Positions 1 through 6,903 are shown, numbered from the stretch's first letter. The stretch is DNA of 64,000 bases from Caldisericia bacterium (GCA_963674785.1 OY771555.1:1568001-1632000); one strand, 5' to 3'. A program made the numbers and translations. The notes: generated by a model not told the origin, from the sequence alone.

Positions 1-215
1 GAGTCTGTTTTCTTCTCGGCAATTATCAATATTGCCCCTTTTGAGGCAGCAGACTTTGTGTAATCGTGTCCATCCGACTTGTCACCTCTGATACAAAAGA
101 AAACCTCTCCTGGGGCAACGATTCGGCTATCAACAGCAAAACCTGTTACCTCAGTGTCTGATAATCTTTGGTTTGAGCCTATTGTGTTTGCAATTTCTTG
201 AATAGTTAGATTCAT
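1..215 (-). CDS. murF: UDP-MurNAc-tripeptide:D-Ala-D-Ala ligase MurF, 5' part (runs off window edge)
   Basis: Hand translation from ATG 215: MNLTIQEIANTIGSNQRLSDTEVTGFAVDSRIVAPGEVFFCIRGDKSDGHDY (Mur ligase N-terminal DSR and DGHDY motifs); ATGA overlap with the murE stop; dcw gene order. Confidence 0.85.
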   Translation of the reverse strand, partial: MNLTIQEIANTIGSNQRLSDTEVTGFAVDSRIVAPGEVFFCIRGDKSDGHDYTKSAASKGAILIIAEKKTD

Positions 216-1675
216 TCGAAACCCCTCTTTTTGAGTGACTCAACTGCGACAATCCTGTCATCCTTGATGAGTTCACCTTTGACATACATTCTCTCTTGGT
301 CGCCCCTTGCAAGGATTGCCAAACAGTCGTCATCTTTTGCATGTTCAACTGCGTAGGCAACAGCTTCTTCTCGGTTTTTTATTATCATGTGGTTTGCGCT
401 GATATTTCCAAGCATGTCTGCAAATTGAGAAACAGTTTCATCGATGTCTTCTCCTTGAGAAAGCCCGTATGTAACTATTGTTTCATCAGAATAATCCTTC
501 AGAACTCTTGCAATGTTTTCTCTTGCCATGATGTCACCATCACCAACCATATAGATTATTGTTGTGATTTTTCCTTTGCAGAATTTTTTCAGATGAGAAA
601 GCACAAACAGAACTGAGCTTTCAGTGTTTGCCTTATCAACCAAAATTGGAAAAGGTTGACGTTTTTCAATCCAGTTCCATCTACCAGAAATCGGTCGAAA
701 TGTCTTGAAGCAGTTGACAAAATCATTGATCTCATAACCAAGACCATGAATCATTCCAAAAACTGTAAGCATATTGATTGTGTTGAGTTCTCCAGCAATC
801 GGGACAAAGATATCATAGTCTTTGCCAAATGCAGAGATTTTTGCTTTCGAGCTTGTCAATCCTAGGTCGAGTTCTTTTATATAAAGATCACCTGAAGTTT
901 TTCCAAATGTGATTACGTTCAGACCTTTTGCTCTTTTTTTTGCCTTTTCAAAGAATCCGTCGTCTTTGTTTAGGATGATCGATCCATCTTTTTTTACCAA
1001 ATCAATTGCCATCATTTTCGATTCAACATATGCATCAAATGTTTTTGCAAGCTTCACGTGATGGTTATAGGTGATATTTGAAATGGCAACCGAATCGAAT
1101 TCAAACCCAATCAGTCGTCCTCTTTCGAGTCCAAAGTTTGACATCTCAAGGACTGCATGTTTACTACCCTCATCACTCATCACTTTGAAATAATCATCAA
1201 GAATGGTGACCGGAGGAGTTGTTCCTGGATTTGATTTGTCAAACTGGACATCCCCAGTTGGGAGGATATGACCAGCAGTTCCTATTAAACCAAGTTTTGG
1301 ATCAACTTTTTTTAATGCGTGCGCAAGAAGGTGTGTGGTTGTTGTTTTGCCATTTGTTCCCGTTACACCACAGAGCCTTAGTTTTTTTGAGGGAAATCCA
1401 TTAAGGGCATGTGATAGTTTTGCAAGTACGGTTTTCGTGTCGGAGACCACAATGACAGAATCAGAATCAAATGGTTCTTCAGAAAAAACAACTGGGCATC
1501 CTGCTTCTAGAGCTGTTTTAATATATTTGTGTCCATCGGTATTATCTCCACGAAGAGCAACAAAAATCTTTCCAGGAGCTGACTTTCTTGAGTCAAAAAT
1601 AATTTCATCAATATCTGGATTTTCTTTGTAACTATTATCAAATCCAGCTTTTTTGAGTAATTCATTGAGTTTCAT
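212..1675 (-). CDS. murE: Mur ligase in MurE position (divergent C-terminal motifs)
   Basis: DSRK, DGHKY and GVTGTNGKTTT P-loop; lies between PBP and murF; start moved to ATG 1675 (SD AGGTGA). Confidence 0.8.
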   Translation of the reverse strand: MKLNELLKKAGFDNSYKENPDIDEIIFDSRKSAPGKIFVALRGDNTDGHKYIKTALEAGCPVVFSEEPFDSDSVIVVSDTKTVLAKLSHALNGFPSKKLRLCGVTGTNGKTTTTHLLAHALKKVDPKLGLIGTAGHILPTGDVQFDKSNPGTTPPVTILDDYFKVMSDEGSKHAVLEMSNFGLERGRLIGFEFDSVAISNITYNHHVKLAKTFDAYVESKMMAIDLVKKDGSIILNKDDGFFEKAKKRAKGLNVITFGKTSGDLYIKELDLGLTSSKAKISAFGKDYDIFVPIAGELNTINMLTVFGMIHGLGYEINDFVNCFKTFRPISGRWNWIEKRQPFPILVDKANTESSVLFVLSHLKKFCKGKITTIIYMVGDGDIMARENIARVLKDYSDETIVTYGLSQGEDIDETVSQFADMLGNISANHMIIKNREEAVAYAVEHAKDDDCLAILARGDQERMYVKGELIKDDRIVAVESLKKRGFE

Positions 1676-1676
1676 A

Positions 1677-3488
1677 TTATTTGTCACCTTTGATGTAGAG
1701 CATGCTTAAAACCTTTGGAGCAATCTCAGAAAAACACGGGATTGCGACAGTTGAACCCCACGGAGTTGTTCCACCGGCGGATGCTTTTGGATACTCAATG
1801 GTCGTAAAGATCACGACCTTTCTTTCGGCAGATGGGTCTGCGGGCACGATTCCAACGAAGCTACAGTTTCTTTTGCTGGTATTGTATCCACCAATCTCTT
1901 TGTCCCAAATGTGTGCAGTTCCGGTTTTTCCGGCAACTGTGTACTTTTCTTTTAGTTTAGAAACTCCACCATATGCATTGGTGTTTTCAGTCAAAAGATT
2001 CATTGTTCTTAAGGCCGTTTCTTCAGATATTGCACGGTGACTCTCCTCTGGTTTATAAATTTTCGATTCACCGTTATTTGGATTGTAATCTTGTCTTACG
2101 ATTATTGGATCAAGCATTATCCCTTTGTTCGCGATTGCTGAATAAGCCATTGTGAGCTGTAGTGGGGTTGCTGTCATTGAGGTTCCAAAAGACATTGCGG
2201 GAAGATCGGTTGCATATTTTGGTTTATTGAAAACACCAGTACTCCCGCCTAAAAAAGAATTTGGTGTTCCACCAAGCCCGAATTTTTTCATTCCATTATA
2301 GAATTTGTCTTTTCCAAGTTTTTGTCCGACCTGAATAAACCCCATATTGCATGAATTTTGTAGGATTTCTAGCAAGTTTTGAGTTCCATGTGCCTTTAAA
2401 GGACATGTGAATCTTTTGTCAGCGATAACCGTCCAGCCCTTACAATAAAACTCTGTTTCTTCGTTAATGACGTCTTCTTCAAGAGCGACTGCGGTCACAA
2501 GACCCTTGATGACTGAGCCAGGGTCATAGGTGAAATTTGTCGCCCTGTTCATGTTTCTTATGGATTCTTCTGTCTCTTTCCACTTGTTCAGATTGAAATT
2601 TGGATATGTTGCCATCGCAAGAATTTCGCCTGTAAAAGGATCACACACAATTGAACAGCCACCCTCTGCATCCCATTTTTCACAGTGTTTTTCAAGAGTT
2701 TTTTCTGTTTCCATCTGGATCATGCTATCAATTGAAAGATATACATCGATTCCATCTGTTGCCGGTTTTATGGTTATATCGTAATTGTTTGAGCTAAGAT
2801 TTTGGCTATGAATTCTTTCACCGACTTCTCCTGACAACATATTATTTAACGCATACTCAATCCCTGATAATCCTTGATTATCTATACCTGTCCATCCAAT
2901 AAGGTTCGAGGCTAGGAAACCTTCGGGATATAAGCGTTTTGTTGCTCCATTAATGACAATGCCTTCAAGATTAAATTTTCTGAGTTTCTCTGCATCCTTT
3001 GCGCTTACCTCTCTTGCGAGAGGCTTATAGGTGGTTTTCCCTTGAATTGTCTTGTGAACTGTATCTTCATCCAGATTGAGGATGTTGGCTATGACAGTTG
3101 CCATACCCTTATCGTTTTCAATGTCCTCAGGTCTTACTTCAAAAAGAGAAGATATTGCAAGTTTGTTTGAGTCTATAATAGGTTGCATTTCCTCGGATAT
3201 TGTTCCGGCAAACCACCCCTTGTTACTGATTCTTTTTGGTTCTACACCAACATCGTATTTGAGGATGTTTGTCGCAAGTGGGTAACCATGTCTATCAAAG
3301 ATTTCCCCTCTCGTTGGGAGTATAGTTTTGCTGGATGTCTTGCCGATACTCCCAGCTTTTTTCACAAAAGCGTTGGCATCAATAAACTGAACTTTGAACA
3401 GTTTTAATACAAGCAAAGAAAAAAGGATAAGAATGAAAACCAGGATTAAGCCAAGCCTTGGTAGGTTTGGTTTGAAGTCATTTCCCAT
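1677..3488 (-). CDS. ftsI: Class B penicillin-binding protein (FtsI/SpoVD family)
   Basis: N-terminal TM, RGEIFDR, RLYPEG, GLSGIE, SxxK (GSVIK), SCN and KTG motifs; dcw context. Confidence 0.9.
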   Translation of the reverse strand: MGNDFKPNLPRLGLILVFILILFSLLVLKLFKVQFIDANAFVKKAGSIGKTSSKTILPTRGEIFDRHGYPLATNILKYDVGVEPKRISNKGWFAGTISEEMQPIIDSNKLAISSLFEVRPEDIENDKGMATVIANILNLDEDTVHKTIQGKTTYKPLAREVSAKDAEKLRKFNLEGIVINGATKRLYPEGFLASNLIGWTGIDNQGLSGIEYALNNMLSGEVGERIHSQNLSSNNYDITIKPATDGIDVYLSIDSMIQMETEKTLEKHCEKWDAEGGCSIVCDPFTGEILAMATYPNFNLNKWKETEESIRNMNRATNFTYDPGSVIKGLVTAVALEEDVINEETEFYCKGWTVIADKRFTCPLKAHGTQNLLEILQNSCNMGFIQVGQKLGKDKFYNGMKKFGLGGTPNSFLGGSTGVFNKPKYATDLPAMSFGTSMTATPLQLTMAYSAIANKGIMLDPIIVRQDYNPNNGESKIYKPEESHRAISEETALRTMNLLTENTNAYGGVSKLKEKYTVAGKTGTAHIWDKEIGGYNTSKRNCSFVGIVPADPSAERKVVIFTTIEYPKASAGGTTPWGSTVAIPCFSEIAPKVLSMLYIKGDK

Positions 3489-3783
3489 GAGCCTCGATCC
3501 ACTCCTTTGGATTAGGCAAATATTTTGGTTGCTCGTCTGTTCTCATGCCAAAAAGCTCTTCAGCTTTTTTCTTTAACTCTGCAAGTGATGCTTGTTGGCT
3601 CTGCTCTTCAAGACTTGCTTTTTCTTGTCTCAGATTGCTAATCAGATTCCTTTTTTCTTTGTTGATATTGTCTTGTGTGAGAACTCTTTGAGTCTGAATT
3701 GTATAAAAAACCAGATACATAATTGCTGATAGGATGATTAGTGACCAAATGAAAACTCGATTGAATCGTCTTCTTTTTGCCAT
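3478..3783 (-). CDS. ftsL: Cell division protein FtsL-like
   Basis: Basic N-terminus, one TM, coiled coil, AEELFGM; located between rsmH and the PBP. Confidence 0.7.
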   Translation of the reverse strand: MAKRRRFNRVFIWSLIILSAIMYLVFYTIQTQRVLTQDNINKEKRNLISNLRQEKASLEEQSQQASLAELKKKAEELFGMRTDEQPKYLPNPKEWIEAHGK

Positions 3784-4694
3784 TAATCAATTCTCCTTAT
3801 TGCTCTTAGTTTTGCAGACCTTGCAGCCGGGTTGTTTTTTATTTCATCATCAGATGGAACAACTGGCTTTTTCGTGAGTATCTGAAACTCTTCCTTGTCT
3901 GAATTCTTAAAAATATTCTTGACTATTCTATCCTCAAGAGAGTGATACGCAATCACAACAAGTGTCCCGCCAGGAAAGAGAACATCTAAGCATTTGGGGA
4001 TAGCGGTTTCAAGGTGTTCAAGCTCCCGATTGATGAAAATCCTCAGAGCCTGAAATGTTCTTGTTGCAGGGTGAATCTTGCCATGTCTGCCTACTGATTT
4101 TTGGATAATATCTGCAAGTCTTCCAGTTGTTAGAATCTTTTCTTTTCTACGTTCAGTTATGATACTTTTTGCAATGTATCTTGATTTTCTCTCATCCCCA
4201 TATTTCCAGATTATGTCTGCCAATTCATCTTCGGGCAGTGAGTTAACATAGTAGCTGACCGGATCTCCGTCAGTTGCGTCAAGTCTCATGTCAAGTGGTT
4301 GATCATCTGAAAATGTGATTCCACGCTTGAAGTTTTTTATGTGAGCCATTGAGATACCAAGATCAAGAAGGATTCCATCGACACCATTTATTCCATGTTC
4401 TTTGAGCTGTTCTTTTATCTGGCTGTAGTTTGAGTGGATTTGAGTAACTCTATCCTTGTATTCAGTTAGATTCTTTTTTGCAAGTATCATCATTTCAGAA
4501 TCTGCATCAAAGCAATATAGATTTGCATTTGAGTTTTTTAAGAATAGAAGTGTGTGTCCACCCTCACCTGTTGTTCCGTCAACAATTGCGGAACACTGTG
4601 ATGGATTTATGAATTCCATCACTTCGTCGGGCATCACTGGAGTGTGATACCGTCCCAGGTGAACTGTAAGCCGGGTTCTGTCTTGTGCTGTCAT
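3783..4694 (-). CDS. rsmH: 16S rRNA m4C1402 methyltransferase RsmH (start codon uncertain; lies inside rnpB)
   Basis: HTPV, DGTTGEGGH, DLGIS, PLDMRLD, HPATRTFQALRI, YHSLEDRIVK, ARSAKLR motifs. Confidence 0.93.
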   Translation of the reverse strand: MTAQDRTRLTVHLGRYHTPVMPDEVMEFINPSQCSAIVDGTTGEGGHTLLFLKNSNANLYCFDADSEMMILAKKNLTEYKDRVTQIHSNYSQIKEQLKEHGINGVDGILLDLGISMAHIKNFKRGITFSDDQPLDMRLDATDGDPVSYYVNSLPEDELADIIWKYGDERKSRYIAKSIITERRKEKILTTGRLADIIQKSVGRHGKIHPATRTFQALRIFINRELEHLETAIPKCLDVLFPGGTLVVIAYHSLEDRIVKNIFKNSDKEEFQILTKKPVVPSDDEIKNNPAARSAKLRAIRRID

Positions 4695-4987
4695 TTATCT
4701 ATCGCGGTCTACCCGAGAAGCTGAGCGAGCAACCCTTAACCTTCTCCTATTTGACCTTGCACCAGATGGGGTTTACCAAGCCGACATGTCACCATGACGC
4801 TGGTGAGCTCTTACCTCACCTTTTCAACCTTACCGATTCCGACTACTCGGAATTTAGGCGGTGTGTTTTCTGTGGCACTTTCCCTAGGGTCACCCCCGCT
4901 GGGTATCAGTCCAGCATCCTGCTCTATGGTGCCCGGACTTTCCTCCCCTGAAAATATTTCAGGAGCGACCGCACATTCACCTGGAAC
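4652..4987 (-). ncRNA. rnpB: RNase P RNA, bacterial type A
   Basis: Minus strand has GAGGAAAGTCCGGGC, AGTGCCACAGAAAA, GGTAAACCCC and ACAGAACCCGGCTTA; P1 pairs GTTCCAGGTGAA (4987-4976) with TTCACCTGGGAC (4663-4652). Confidence 0.97.
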
Positions 4988-4994
4988 ACTGTGA

Positions 4995-5023
4995 ATTATA
5001 TTGAATATCTATACAACAATCAA
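4995..5023 (-). promoter_or_regulatory. sigma70-type promoter of the rnpB/dcw operon
   Basis: TTGATT-17bp-TATAAT ending 7 nt before the rnpB 5' end. Confidence 0.75.
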
Positions 5024-5030
5024 TGATTTT

Positions 5031-5621
5031 TTATCTGAGTTCTTTTATTGCGGAATCAAAGTTGGAATAAAAACCGTTTACACCACTTTGGTCGGTATAC
5101 AATGTTCCATCGGGTCTCAAAAGCACTATGTAAGGATATCCCGTTACCCCATATTTATAGACAGCTTCCTTATTTTCATCCACAAGGAATGTCCACGGAA
5201 TTTCATCCTGTTCCTTGTTCATTTTCGCAGTTTTTGTATCTTCTCCACAATTGATTGAGAGGAAATGGACTTCATCTTTGTAGATGTTGTAAAGATTTTT
5301 AATTTCTGGGGCAAGAACATGACACCAATGACACCAGGATGCCGTGAAATCAAGAAGAATTGGTTTTCCAGCGTAGTCACTCAAACTATGAATATTTCCC
5401 TCTGTGTCGGGCAGAGTGAAGTTCTTTGCGTTTGGTGAAAGCTTCATTGTTGCGCTTGGGGAAGAGTCCCCAGAAGGCAGGAAAACAACGATCAAGATTA
5501 TAACTAAAACAACTATGATTGCTGATAGAAGCCCAATAAAAAGATTATTTCTTTTGTGTACCTTTTTTTCAGCAACCTTCTTTTTCATCATTTTGGCTTT
5601 TCGGCTAAGCTTATTGCTCAT
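5031..5621 (-). CDS. Membrane-anchored TlpA/ResA-like thiol-disulfide oxidoreductase
   Basis: TM anchor, AKNFTLPD, FTASWCHWC (CxxC), GYP cis-Pro loop. Confidence 0.85.
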   Translation of the reverse strand: MSNKLSRKAKMMKKKVAEKKVHKRNNLFIGLLSAIIVVLVIILIVVFLPSGDSSPSATMKLSPNAKNFTLPDTEGNIHSLSDYAGKPILLDFTASWCHWCHVLAPEIKNLYNIYKDEVHFLSINCGEDTKTAKMNKEQDEIPWTFLVDENKEAVYKYGVTGYPYIVLLRPDGTLYTDQSGVNGFYSNFDSAIKELR

Positions 5622-5625
5622 GATC

Positions 5626-6903
5626 TTACTCCGATCTGATCAAATTTATATCTCCTGATACTGTTCTAATCATCATACCAGAATCACCATTGCCAATTGT
5701 GAAGTTTCTATTTTTTATGTCAAGACCCTCGGAAGAAATATCCCCGCTTGTTGTTGCAATTCCTCCTCTTATCGAGTTTTCTATATTATCTGAAAAGATG
5801 ATTTCAACATCTCCTGAGGTTGTATTGATTGTGGTATTTCCGGATGTTGCAAAGTAATTATCAATTTCAATTTCACCGGAAATTGTTTTGATTCTCGCGT
5901 TCCCTGGATCTATTATGTCGCCTAAAAAAATATCTCCTGAGGTCGTATTGATTTCAAAGTTACCAGAGTTTGATTTGCACTTAACTCGTCCAGAGATTGA
6001 TGACATGTTTGTATTATCTGCCATTCCGATATTTATATCACCAGAGGTTGTTTTAAATGTTGAATTGCTTGCTTTTTCACAAGAAATATCTCCAGAGACT
6101 GTTGAAATCATGCTTGAACCTTCAAGATTTCCTGCGGAAAAGTGACCACTTTTCAGATTTGTTATGTCAAGGCTTCCTGTCCAATCACCGATAATTTCAA
6201 AATCGTACAACTTATCTTGTGTGGTGATTGATGCTGTTGGGTCATAATAGACAGAGATTTTCAGGTCATAATAGAAATCAGCTTTGGATAAGCCTTTGAC
6301 GTTTAACATGTAATCATCCAAAAGCTCAATATCAAGTTCCAGGCTCTTGTTGATATCGCTTCCTGTTTTTTTGGCTCCCACTTCATAATCAATTCTCTGA
6401 TTTTCGCTTGTGGGGATTATTGTCACTTCGACTTTTTCAGCATGATTATCATCAACACTGATCCTGAATTCATTGATTGGGAAGCTATATAATCCAAGAG
6501 GGTATGAGTTTTCAAATGTCTGTTTTACTTCCCCATGCCAGCCAAAACTGTCAAAATTGAAGAGCTCACCCAAGTTTGAAAGAGTGATTTGTTTTGGTTC
6601 TTCAGGTATTCGCAAAAATGCTCTGGTTGATGTTCCACTTGAACCCGGTGAGGATGCAACCATTAGGATCACCAGCAAAACTGTGAAAGCCAGAGAGCCA
6701 ATGTAGTTAATATCATCCCTGCTAAAAATAACGTTTAACCCAATAATGATGAAGATGATTGGCCAGAGCTTCCAGAAATATGGGAAGTAACCGAAGTCTA
6801 CCCACCCAAAATTACAAAACAGGATATAAAGACCCACCAGCAAAACATTTATTCCACCAATCAACCGACCTACATTAACAGCACTTGGGTTCCTATCTTC
6901 CAT
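5626..6903 (-). CDS. LiaF/DUF5668-like membrane domain plus DUF4097 beta-repeat protein (envelope stress)
   Basis: LWPIIFIIIGL N-terminal TMs; repeated TxSGDI motifs in the C-terminal half. Confidence 0.75.
   Translation of the reverse strand: MEDRNPSAVNVGRLIGGINVLLVGLYILFCNFGWVDFGYFPYFWKLWPIIFIIIGLNVIFSRDDINYIGSLAFTVLLVILMVASSPGSSGTSTRAFLRIPEEPKQITLSNLGELFNFDSFGWHGEVKQTFENSYPLGLYSFPINEFRISVDDNHAEKVEVTIIPTSENQRIDYEVGAKKTGSDINKSLELDIELLDDYMLNVKGLSKADFYYDLKISVYYDPTASITTQDKLYDFEIIGDWTGSLDITNLKSGHFSAGNLEGSSMISTVSGDISCEKASNSTFKTTSGDINIGMADNTNMSSISGRVKCKSNSGNFEINTTSGDIFLGDIIDPGNARIKTISGEIEIDNYFATSGNTTINTTSGDVEIIFSDNIENSIRGGIATTSGDISSEGLDIKNRNFTIGNGDSGMMIRTVSGDINLIRSE

Follow-up and report, generated by a model that had tools for sequence, protein, structure and literature searches.

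The rnpB-rsmH junction

We analysed a stretch of 64,000 nucleotides (nt) from the genome of a Caldisericia bacterium (GCA_963674785.1, OY771555.1:1568001-1632000), referred to as the window, in which rnpB, the gene for the RNA of ribonuclease P (RNase P), lies immediately upstream of rsmH, the first gene of the division/cell-wall (dcw) cluster. A preliminary description of this DNA had proposed that rsmH is translated from inside rnpB and that rnpB replaces mraZ as the head of the cluster. The observation behind this proposal was confirmed: rnpB runs into rsmH, and ahead of the first conserved codons of rsmH start codons are available only inside rnpB. All features of the window described here lie on the minus strand, and coordinates are those of the window.

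The rnpB gene (4651..4984) matches RF00010 with 276.4 bits against a gathering score of 100, over its full length (model positions 1-367), and no other RF00010 match was found in the genome, a single contig of 2.23 Mb. Its two P4 strands fit the RF00010 consensus. In the P1 3' strand the last 9 nt (4655..4663) all pair with the 5' end of rnpB; 8-9 of these 9 nt are paired in each of the nine loci from the family of the window (family f1), and a C/U change in the P1 3' strand is matched there by G/A on the 5' strand. Judged by its sequence, the element is a bacterial RNase P RNA of class A. It has no P18, as seen from a deletion of about 23 model positions in the RF00010 alignment, and rnpB of family f1 also has no hairpin between the P2 and P4 3' strands, whereas rnpB of the related families f4 and f5 has one. 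Its absence both shortens the stretch that would be translated and leaves it less structured.

Ahead of rnpB lies a putative sigma-70-type promoter (TTGATT-17-TATAAT, 4995..5023) with 10 of 12 matches, the -10 box of which ends 10 nt before the rnpB 5' end. It is the best promoter-like site between 3700 and 5700, and its position is kept in all nine f1 loci, where a -35/-10 pair scoring 8-10/12 ends 9-10 nt before rnpB. In total five promoter-like sites were found in this interval compared with 4.4 +/- 2.4 in shuffled sequences, so that the scan is not significant by itself. No terminator-like site was found in the same interval (0 in 3700-5700), which agrees with the terminator-less end of rnpB in the preliminary description.

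In its longest reading rsmH (3783..4694) encodes a protein of 303 amino acids (aa) of the 16S rRNA m4C1402 methyltransferase family (PF01795, PDB 1m6y). This reading begins at an in-frame ATG (4692..4694) in the single-stranded J18/2 linker of rnpB, 16 codons 5' of the conserved His and immediately preceded by an in-frame TAA (4697-4695). From there the frame passes through the P2 3' strand and then through the P4 3' strand of the ribozyme core, ACAGAACCCGGCTTA (4667..4681), which reads Arg-Thr-Arg-Leu, and reaches P1, where an in-frame CTG (4658-4656) four codons 5' of His is the second candidate start. As described before, these two codons are the sole in-frame candidate starts upstream of His. 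In the 8 nt that separate the His codon from the last P1 pair (4647..4654) there is no ATG, GTG or TTG and no motif resembling a Shine-Dalgarno (SD) sequence. This gap had been put at about 5 nt; we measured 8 nt past the last P1 pair and 4 nt past the end of the Rfam model. The codons for the N-terminal motif His-Thr-Pro-Val (HTPV) follow at 4635..4646 (His 4646, Thr 4643, Pro 4640, Val as GTG 4637), and after them comes an internal ATG (4632..4634), which the recorded gene call of this genome uses as its start (283 aa). Immediately past P1 the window has an 8-bp hairpin, which, read by eye, is not kept in relatives.

The conserved N-terminus of RsmH and its start codon

RsmH of the window matches PF01795 with 313.1 bits (cut-off 27) over profile positions 3-308 of 309, from residue 16 of the longest reading on, and PDB 1m6y with E = 1.1e-70. 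HTPV occupies residues 17-20 and the Gly-rich S-adenosylmethionine (SAM) motif GEGGH residues 43-47; His17, Val20, Gly43, Gly46 and His47 are invariant in an alignment of 25 RsmH sequences, other phyla included. In the RsmH structures of T. maritima and T. thermophilus the HTPV motif lies 6-10 residues from the N-terminus. The predicted structure of the window protein (predicted template modelling score, pTM, 0.87) has a predicted local distance difference test (pLDDT) below 50 for residues 1-15 and is confident for the rest, with a mean of 90.8, which suggests that a tail encoded by rnpB would form a disordered appendage and be tolerated.

Family f1 is represented by 11 species genomes. Both genes were found in nine of them, from three genera, and neither in the remaining two, of which one is 69% complete. 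The nine loci (L001-L009) were gathered by homology of the whole protein, not by the HTPV motif. In all nine genomes the RsmH protein match begins 1-10 nt after the end of rnpB, and none has an ATG, GTG or TTG between P1 and His, the same start-less gap that had been described for the window. At the J18/2 position each locus carries an in-frame ATG, and in the terminal P1 pairs there is a second in-frame candidate, which is CTG in the four loci of the window's genus and TTG in the five loci of the other two genera, and no stop lies between these starts and His. The RsmH reading frames are full length, free of stops and 54-76% identical across the three genera, which are about 0.5 substitutions per site apart in the RsmH tree; f1 RsmH forms one clade there (support 100/99). 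The codons before His are GGA-CGG-TAT, GAA-CGT-TAT, GAA-CGT-CAC, AAG-CCT-TTT, AGA-CCA-GAC and GGA-CAG-GGA-CAG-TAC-CAT. From the Asp encoded by P4 to His there are 12 residues in two genera, 15 in the third (a 9-nt difference) and 13 in the metagenomic relative P0008, and all three lengths keep the rsmH frame.

Whether the protein begins before HTPV is the key question, and the codons of the motif bear on it. Among L001-L009 the four HTPV codons have 0, 0 and 4 variable sites at codon positions 1, 2 and 3, respectively; four variable sites would all fall on third positions by chance once in 495 cases, a figure that is indicative only, as the sequences are related. Variation solely at third codon positions argues that the motif is translated, and a translated motif requires initiation upstream of it, which in f1 means inside rnpB. 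The proposal that rsmH starts within rnpB thus gained ground, as HTPV behaves like coding sequence and no start follows P1 in any of the nine f1 relatives, and from these comparisons we consider a start codon inside rnpB likely.

A different possibility is that rsmH starts at the internal ATG 4634, which is TTG in three relatives, and that f1 RsmH does without the His-x-Pro-Val motif. The mRNA could then simply be the piece that trimming of the RNase P RNA precursor cuts off at the 3' end. An ATG (6/9) or TTG (3/9) is found four codons after His in all nine loci, the 283-aa call on record begins there, and helix 1 of the structure model begins at residue 22, so that the fold would survive. In PMC10828496 the SAM-pocket residues listed for the homologue METTL15 also begin well past this motif. 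However, Leu or Met is usual at that residue in RsmH generally, so that ATG or TTG is expected there anyway and is no argument for a start. In addition, the His, Thr and Pro codons vary at third positions alone, which is unexpected for untranslated sequence, His17 is invariant across phyla, and no SD precedes this ATG. If HTPV is translated, ATG 4634 is an unlikely start, and we regard it as such. The preliminary description had kept GTG 4637 and ATG 4634 together as its alternative; in just two of the nine loci is Val encoded by GTG, the others having GTA, GTT or GTC, which means that this codon is not the start, and the conservation of the preceding codons as codons disfavours both.

For a start inside rnpB two codons have to be compared. 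AUG 4694 belongs to the J18/2 linker, which is single-stranded and rich in A. In unconstrained thermodynamic folds, calculated for rnpB plus 90 nt at four loci, this AUG is unpaired about half the time. The CUG/UUG of P1 is paired in three of these four loci and has an unpaired probability of 0.65 in L007. Initiation at CUG/UUG would give an N-terminus of normal length, with 4-7 residues before His as in relatives. On the other hand, C and U replace each other freely at this codon, with compensation on the opposite strand of P1, which suggests selection on pairing and not on a start, and this tilts the comparison a little towards AUG 4694, which on sequence grounds is slightly preferred as the putative start of rsmH. 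A leaderless start at the rnpB ATG was considered and rejected, because no -10-like hexamer was seen by eye at the right distance.

Public gene calls differ in the same way. The 13 proteins P0002-P0014 (304-308 aa) start at the rnpB ATG, P0016 and P0018 (293-294 aa; NCBI and JGI) start at the TTG of P1, and P0001, P0015 and P0017 (280-286 aa) start at or after Val. P0001, which begins with Met-Pro-Asp-Glu-Val, is the 283-aa call of the window's own genome.

The head of the dcw cluster in Caldisericota and beyond

Downstream of rsmH the window continues on the same strand with a 101-aa open reading frame (ORF) without Pfam match in the ftsL position (3478..3783), an ftsI-type penicillin-binding protein (1677..3488), a Mur ligase in the murE position (212..1687) and the start of a further ORF in the murF position; ftsL and murF are assigned by position only. 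Each of these genes abuts or overlaps the next, as had been described. The start of the 101-aa ORF overlaps the rsmH stop codon and has its own AAGGAG SD, and a GAGG motif precedes the ATG of ftsI. The 16S rRNA has the usual CCTCC anti-SD at its 3' end, and GGAG, GAGG or AGGA occurs at -16..-5 of 582/1527 upstream-most starts, taken from a crude ORF set, versus 105/1527 controls. As the genome uses SDs, ftsL and ftsI have them and none of the candidate starts of rsmH does, initiation of rsmH is atypical whichever codon serves. With SDs of their own, ftsL and ftsI need not follow the translation of rsmH.

An exact 12-nt direct repeat, TCACAGTGTTCC, occurs in just two copies in the window, at 4983-4994 and 4590-4601 on the minus strand (shuffles expect 0.00 matches). 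One copy spans the transcription-start region of rnpB together with its 5' end, the other lies 45 nt into rsmH, so that the pair flanks rnpB and the first ~15 codons after His. Read by eye, the repeat is not at the equivalent places in L002, the closest relative.

The missing mraZ of the preliminary description was borne out, as PF02381 (MraZ) has no match in the window's genome, which is 92% complete. We then compared 93 Caldisericota genomes for MraZ, rnpB and RsmH, where gene adjacency was counted in genomes in which both rnpB and rsmH were found. MraZ was not found in families f1 (0/11), f4 (0/26), f5 (0/13) and f6 (0/2), which is 0/52 in total, and was found directly upstream of rsmH in f2 (22/23), f3 (9/9) and f7 (9/9). 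On the same strand and directly 5' of rsmH, rnpB was found in f1 at a distance of 1-10 nt (9/9), in f5 at 25-83 nt, mostly 25-35 nt (12/12, one rnpB being cut by a contig end), in f4 at 33-53 nt (15/25) and in f6 at 217 and 266 nt (2/2), and in no genome of f2 (0/18), f3 (0/7) or f7 (0/7). The adjacency of rnpB and rsmH is therefore seen in 38/48 genomes of the four MraZ-less families versus 0/32 of the three MraZ-holding families, a phyletic pattern and not a statistical test because the genomes are related. At the level of gene order, rnpB thus does stand in the place of mraZ, as had been proposed.

In ten f4 genomes rnpB and rsmH are not adjacent and lie about 24-25 kb apart or on different contigs. 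Where they share a contig (G017, G029, G046, G049, G050 and G052), the distance is ~24-25 kb in 6/6, which suggests one rearrangement inherited by several genera.

The comparison of rnpB-rsmH junctions in relatives that the preliminary description had suggested gave a divided picture. In f1 the frame is open and no start follows P1 in 9/9, but the sister families, in which a spacer of 25-266 nt separates the genes, have a normal start: rsmH has its own ATG 2-7 codons before His, and its frame relative to P4 varies. Such an own start a few codons before His was present in 21/21 non-f1 Caldisericota loci examined. In all three f4 loci examined (L010, L015 and L021) P1 is directly followed by a T-run and then, 6-7 nt ahead of the rsmH ATG, by a TGnTATAAT box; by sequence this looks like a separate promoter giving a leaderless rsmH mRNA. 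L026, L028 and L029 have TATAAT 7 nt before the ATG as well. In L017 and L022 (f5, genus g9) the P1 3' end is GAGG and lies 6-7 nt before the rsmH ATG, so that the SD of rsmH would likely lie inside the closing helix of the ribozyme, unlike L027 of the same family, which has AAGGAAG in the spacer. The long rnpB-rsmH spacer of f6 is AT-rich. The series of ever shorter spacers (f6, f4, f5, f1) is a description and not a demonstrated history. The RsmH tree does not resolve the order of the families (60/71), so neither an origin of the spacer-less from a short-spacer state nor a single loss of mraZ can be inferred from it.

We also scanned one genome per species (185,579 species) for a P4 strand 8-38 nt from HxPV(L/M)xxE. 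The six matches were four f1 loci, one chance match (L046, Nocardioides, no RsmH) and one locus of another lineage (L045); a scan of metagenome contigs gave seven matches, six from f1 and L054. Within the limits of these patterns no start-less junction was found outside f1 in either scan; as the patterns demanded the ACAG or CCGG forms of P4 together with HxPV(L/M)xxE, other tight junctions may be missed. L045 (2740-3161, minus strand, genome G093) belongs to an unrelated, GC-richer lineage, in which an rnpB of 252.9 bits also runs into rsmH, with TTG-ATG-Leu-His-Thr-Pro-Val following 5-8 nt after its end. Its 1.3-Mb genome gave no match to MraZ. In the phylum of L045 a P4 strand lies within 60 nt of HxPV in 2/65 genomes, the second being that of L059 (G147), with the two genes ~40 nt apart. 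In L054 (1123-1166), a GC-rich metagenomic RsmH, HTPV lies 10 nt after a P4 look-alike, CCGGCTTACAG; its 1.8-kb contig holds no RNase P RNA at gathering score, and the match was treated as chance.

A literature search, in which supplementary files were outside the scope, found no publication linking rnpB or RNase P RNA with rsmH, the dcw cluster or Caldiserica. In the available part of PMC4198240 rnpB and mraW are unlinked, and no title on rnpB as a coding RNA was among the dual-function matches listed.

Proposed read-through from rnpB and its possible meaning

On balance we favour the reading that rsmH is translated from a start inside rnpB on transcripts that read through from the conserved rnpB promoter. 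In f1, rsmH would have lost its own promoter and its own start codon, and rsmH, probably together with the whole cluster, would be transcribed by read-through from the strong rnpB promoter. Translation would initiate in the 3' part of rnpB, either at AUG 4694 or at the P1 CUG/UUG 4658, and with AUG 4694 as start the protein would gain a floppy tail, 16-19 residues long, for which the 3' strands of P2, P4 and P1 would code. Each read-through RNA would then either be trimmed to mature RNase P RNA, which would remove the rsmH start, or be translated, which would unwind P4 and P1, so that 3' trimming and translation would be mutually exclusive.

Several points weigh against this reading. No SD-like motif precedes any of the three candidate starts of rsmH (4694, 4658 and 4634), and a start four codons past His is always on offer. 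All three frames are open across the junction stretch when read by eye, and over such a short stretch an open rsmH frame alone means little. The nine f1 genomes are kin and not independent samples. The keeping of the frame at different spacer lengths points in the right way but is weak, with two independent length changes and a chance of about 1 in 9, and gene callers that extend ORFs favour in-frame cases. RNase P RNAs universally have the AUG of J18/2, which means that finding it here is no evidence of its use; CUG is a poor start codon and is also paired in P1; and folding did not single out one start. Public transcript data gave no evidence either way. Eight metatranscriptome runs contained just 5-11% of the sampled words, whereas the stretch is present in two DNA runs (X9 and X10), and four of the metatranscriptome runs were compared with the region. 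Their contigs cover 4623-4958 only, inside or at the edge of rnpB in its conserved parts, mostly with 85-95% likeness as for RNase P RNA of other organisms; no contig bridges the junction, and over rsmH there is just a faint patch (3993-4076) in one run.

A start inside rnpB could also be used on an mRNA that comes from a separate weak promoter within rnpB and not from read-through. Such an mRNA would be without the 5' half of the ribozyme, P1 would be unable to form and CUG/UUG would be free, which would solve the accessibility of a start codon buried in P1, and the TGnTATAAT boxes in three of three f4 loci indicate that rsmH-specific promoters beside rnpB exist in that family. In f1, however, no sigma-70-like site was found on the sense strand inside rnpB (0/9 loci), and the sequence of rnpB is constrained by the ribozyme, which makes an internal promoter improbable. 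More remote still is initiation at a non-standard codon within the 8-17 nt that separate P1 from His, or a different recoding event: ribozyme and enzyme would stay free of overlap, but the codons there are unconserved and none is a usual near-cognate start. That rsmH is decaying or unexpressed in f1 and the junction a deletion accident would fit the loss of start codon, promoter and SD, but is hardly credible for full-length frames with the identities given above, invariant catalytic-motif columns and a confident structure model.

If the read-through reading holds, a further step can be considered, in which the primary transcript acts as a two-way switch and becomes either ribozyme or, via the AUG of J18/2, opens the division/cell-wall operon. 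On folding and 3' trimming the ribozyme would be made and the dcw message would lose its first start codon; on ribosome entry, translation through the catalytic P4 strand and P1 would destroy the ribozyme fold. We put this forward as a tentative and rather doubtful idea, and the coupling of tRNA processing to cell division suggested in the preliminary description is speculation. Should the switch exist, expression of the cluster would be tied to the activity of a stable-RNA (growth-rate) promoter and to RNase P assembly in a MraZ-less lineage, and rnpB would be the first ribozyme whose catalytic-core sequence is also read as protein.

The proposed arrangement combines known kinds of organization, the overlap of an RNA with a coding sequence and the co-transcription of a stable RNA with an mRNA. 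Bacterial dual-function RNAs that encode a peptide are known in RNAIII/hld, SgrS/SgrT, SR1/SR1P and tmRNA, and as in these one RNA sequence would serve as functional RNA and as coding sequence. In contrast to them, rnpB is an essential, universally conserved ribozyme and would code for the N-terminus of a full-size enzyme, the body of which lies downstream; its two uses would probably exclude each other in each molecule, and its translation is suggested by comparison. Stable-RNA genes that are co-transcribed with protein genes and split by processing are also known, for example the tRNA genes ahead of tufB in E. coli. There, as proposed here, an mRNA is transcribed from the strong promoter of the stable RNA ahead of it and the two are cut apart by nucleases, but the mRNA keeps its own ribosome-binding site and start after cleavage, whereas the rnpB-rsmH product would lose them. 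In Thermus, rpmH and rnpA overlap on the same strand, so that a component of RNase P shares DNA with another gene as well, although protein gene with protein gene and not, as here, RNA gene with protein gene. MraZ is a transcription factor of the dcw cluster promoter, and mraZ-rsmH heads the cluster. The downstream order (rsmH, ftsL position, ftsI, murE, murF) and an element immediately 5' of rsmH are common to both arrangements, but in f1 an RNA gene occupies this place. We know of no regulatory role of rnpB.

If the reading is confirmed, gene finders systematically mis-start rsmH in this family, for which three starts are on record, and the genes of an essential ribozyme and of a protein can have same-strand sequence in common over long evolutionary periods. 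It would also mean that a stable-RNA promoter can replace the MraZ-controlled promoter that heads the division and cell-wall cluster. The families of this phylum form a natural series in which the loss of a gene's own initiation signals can be studied, from the spacers of 217-266 nt in f6 and of 33-53 nt with a promoter-like box in f4 to those of mostly 25-35 nt in f5, some with GAGG in P1, and to none in f1.

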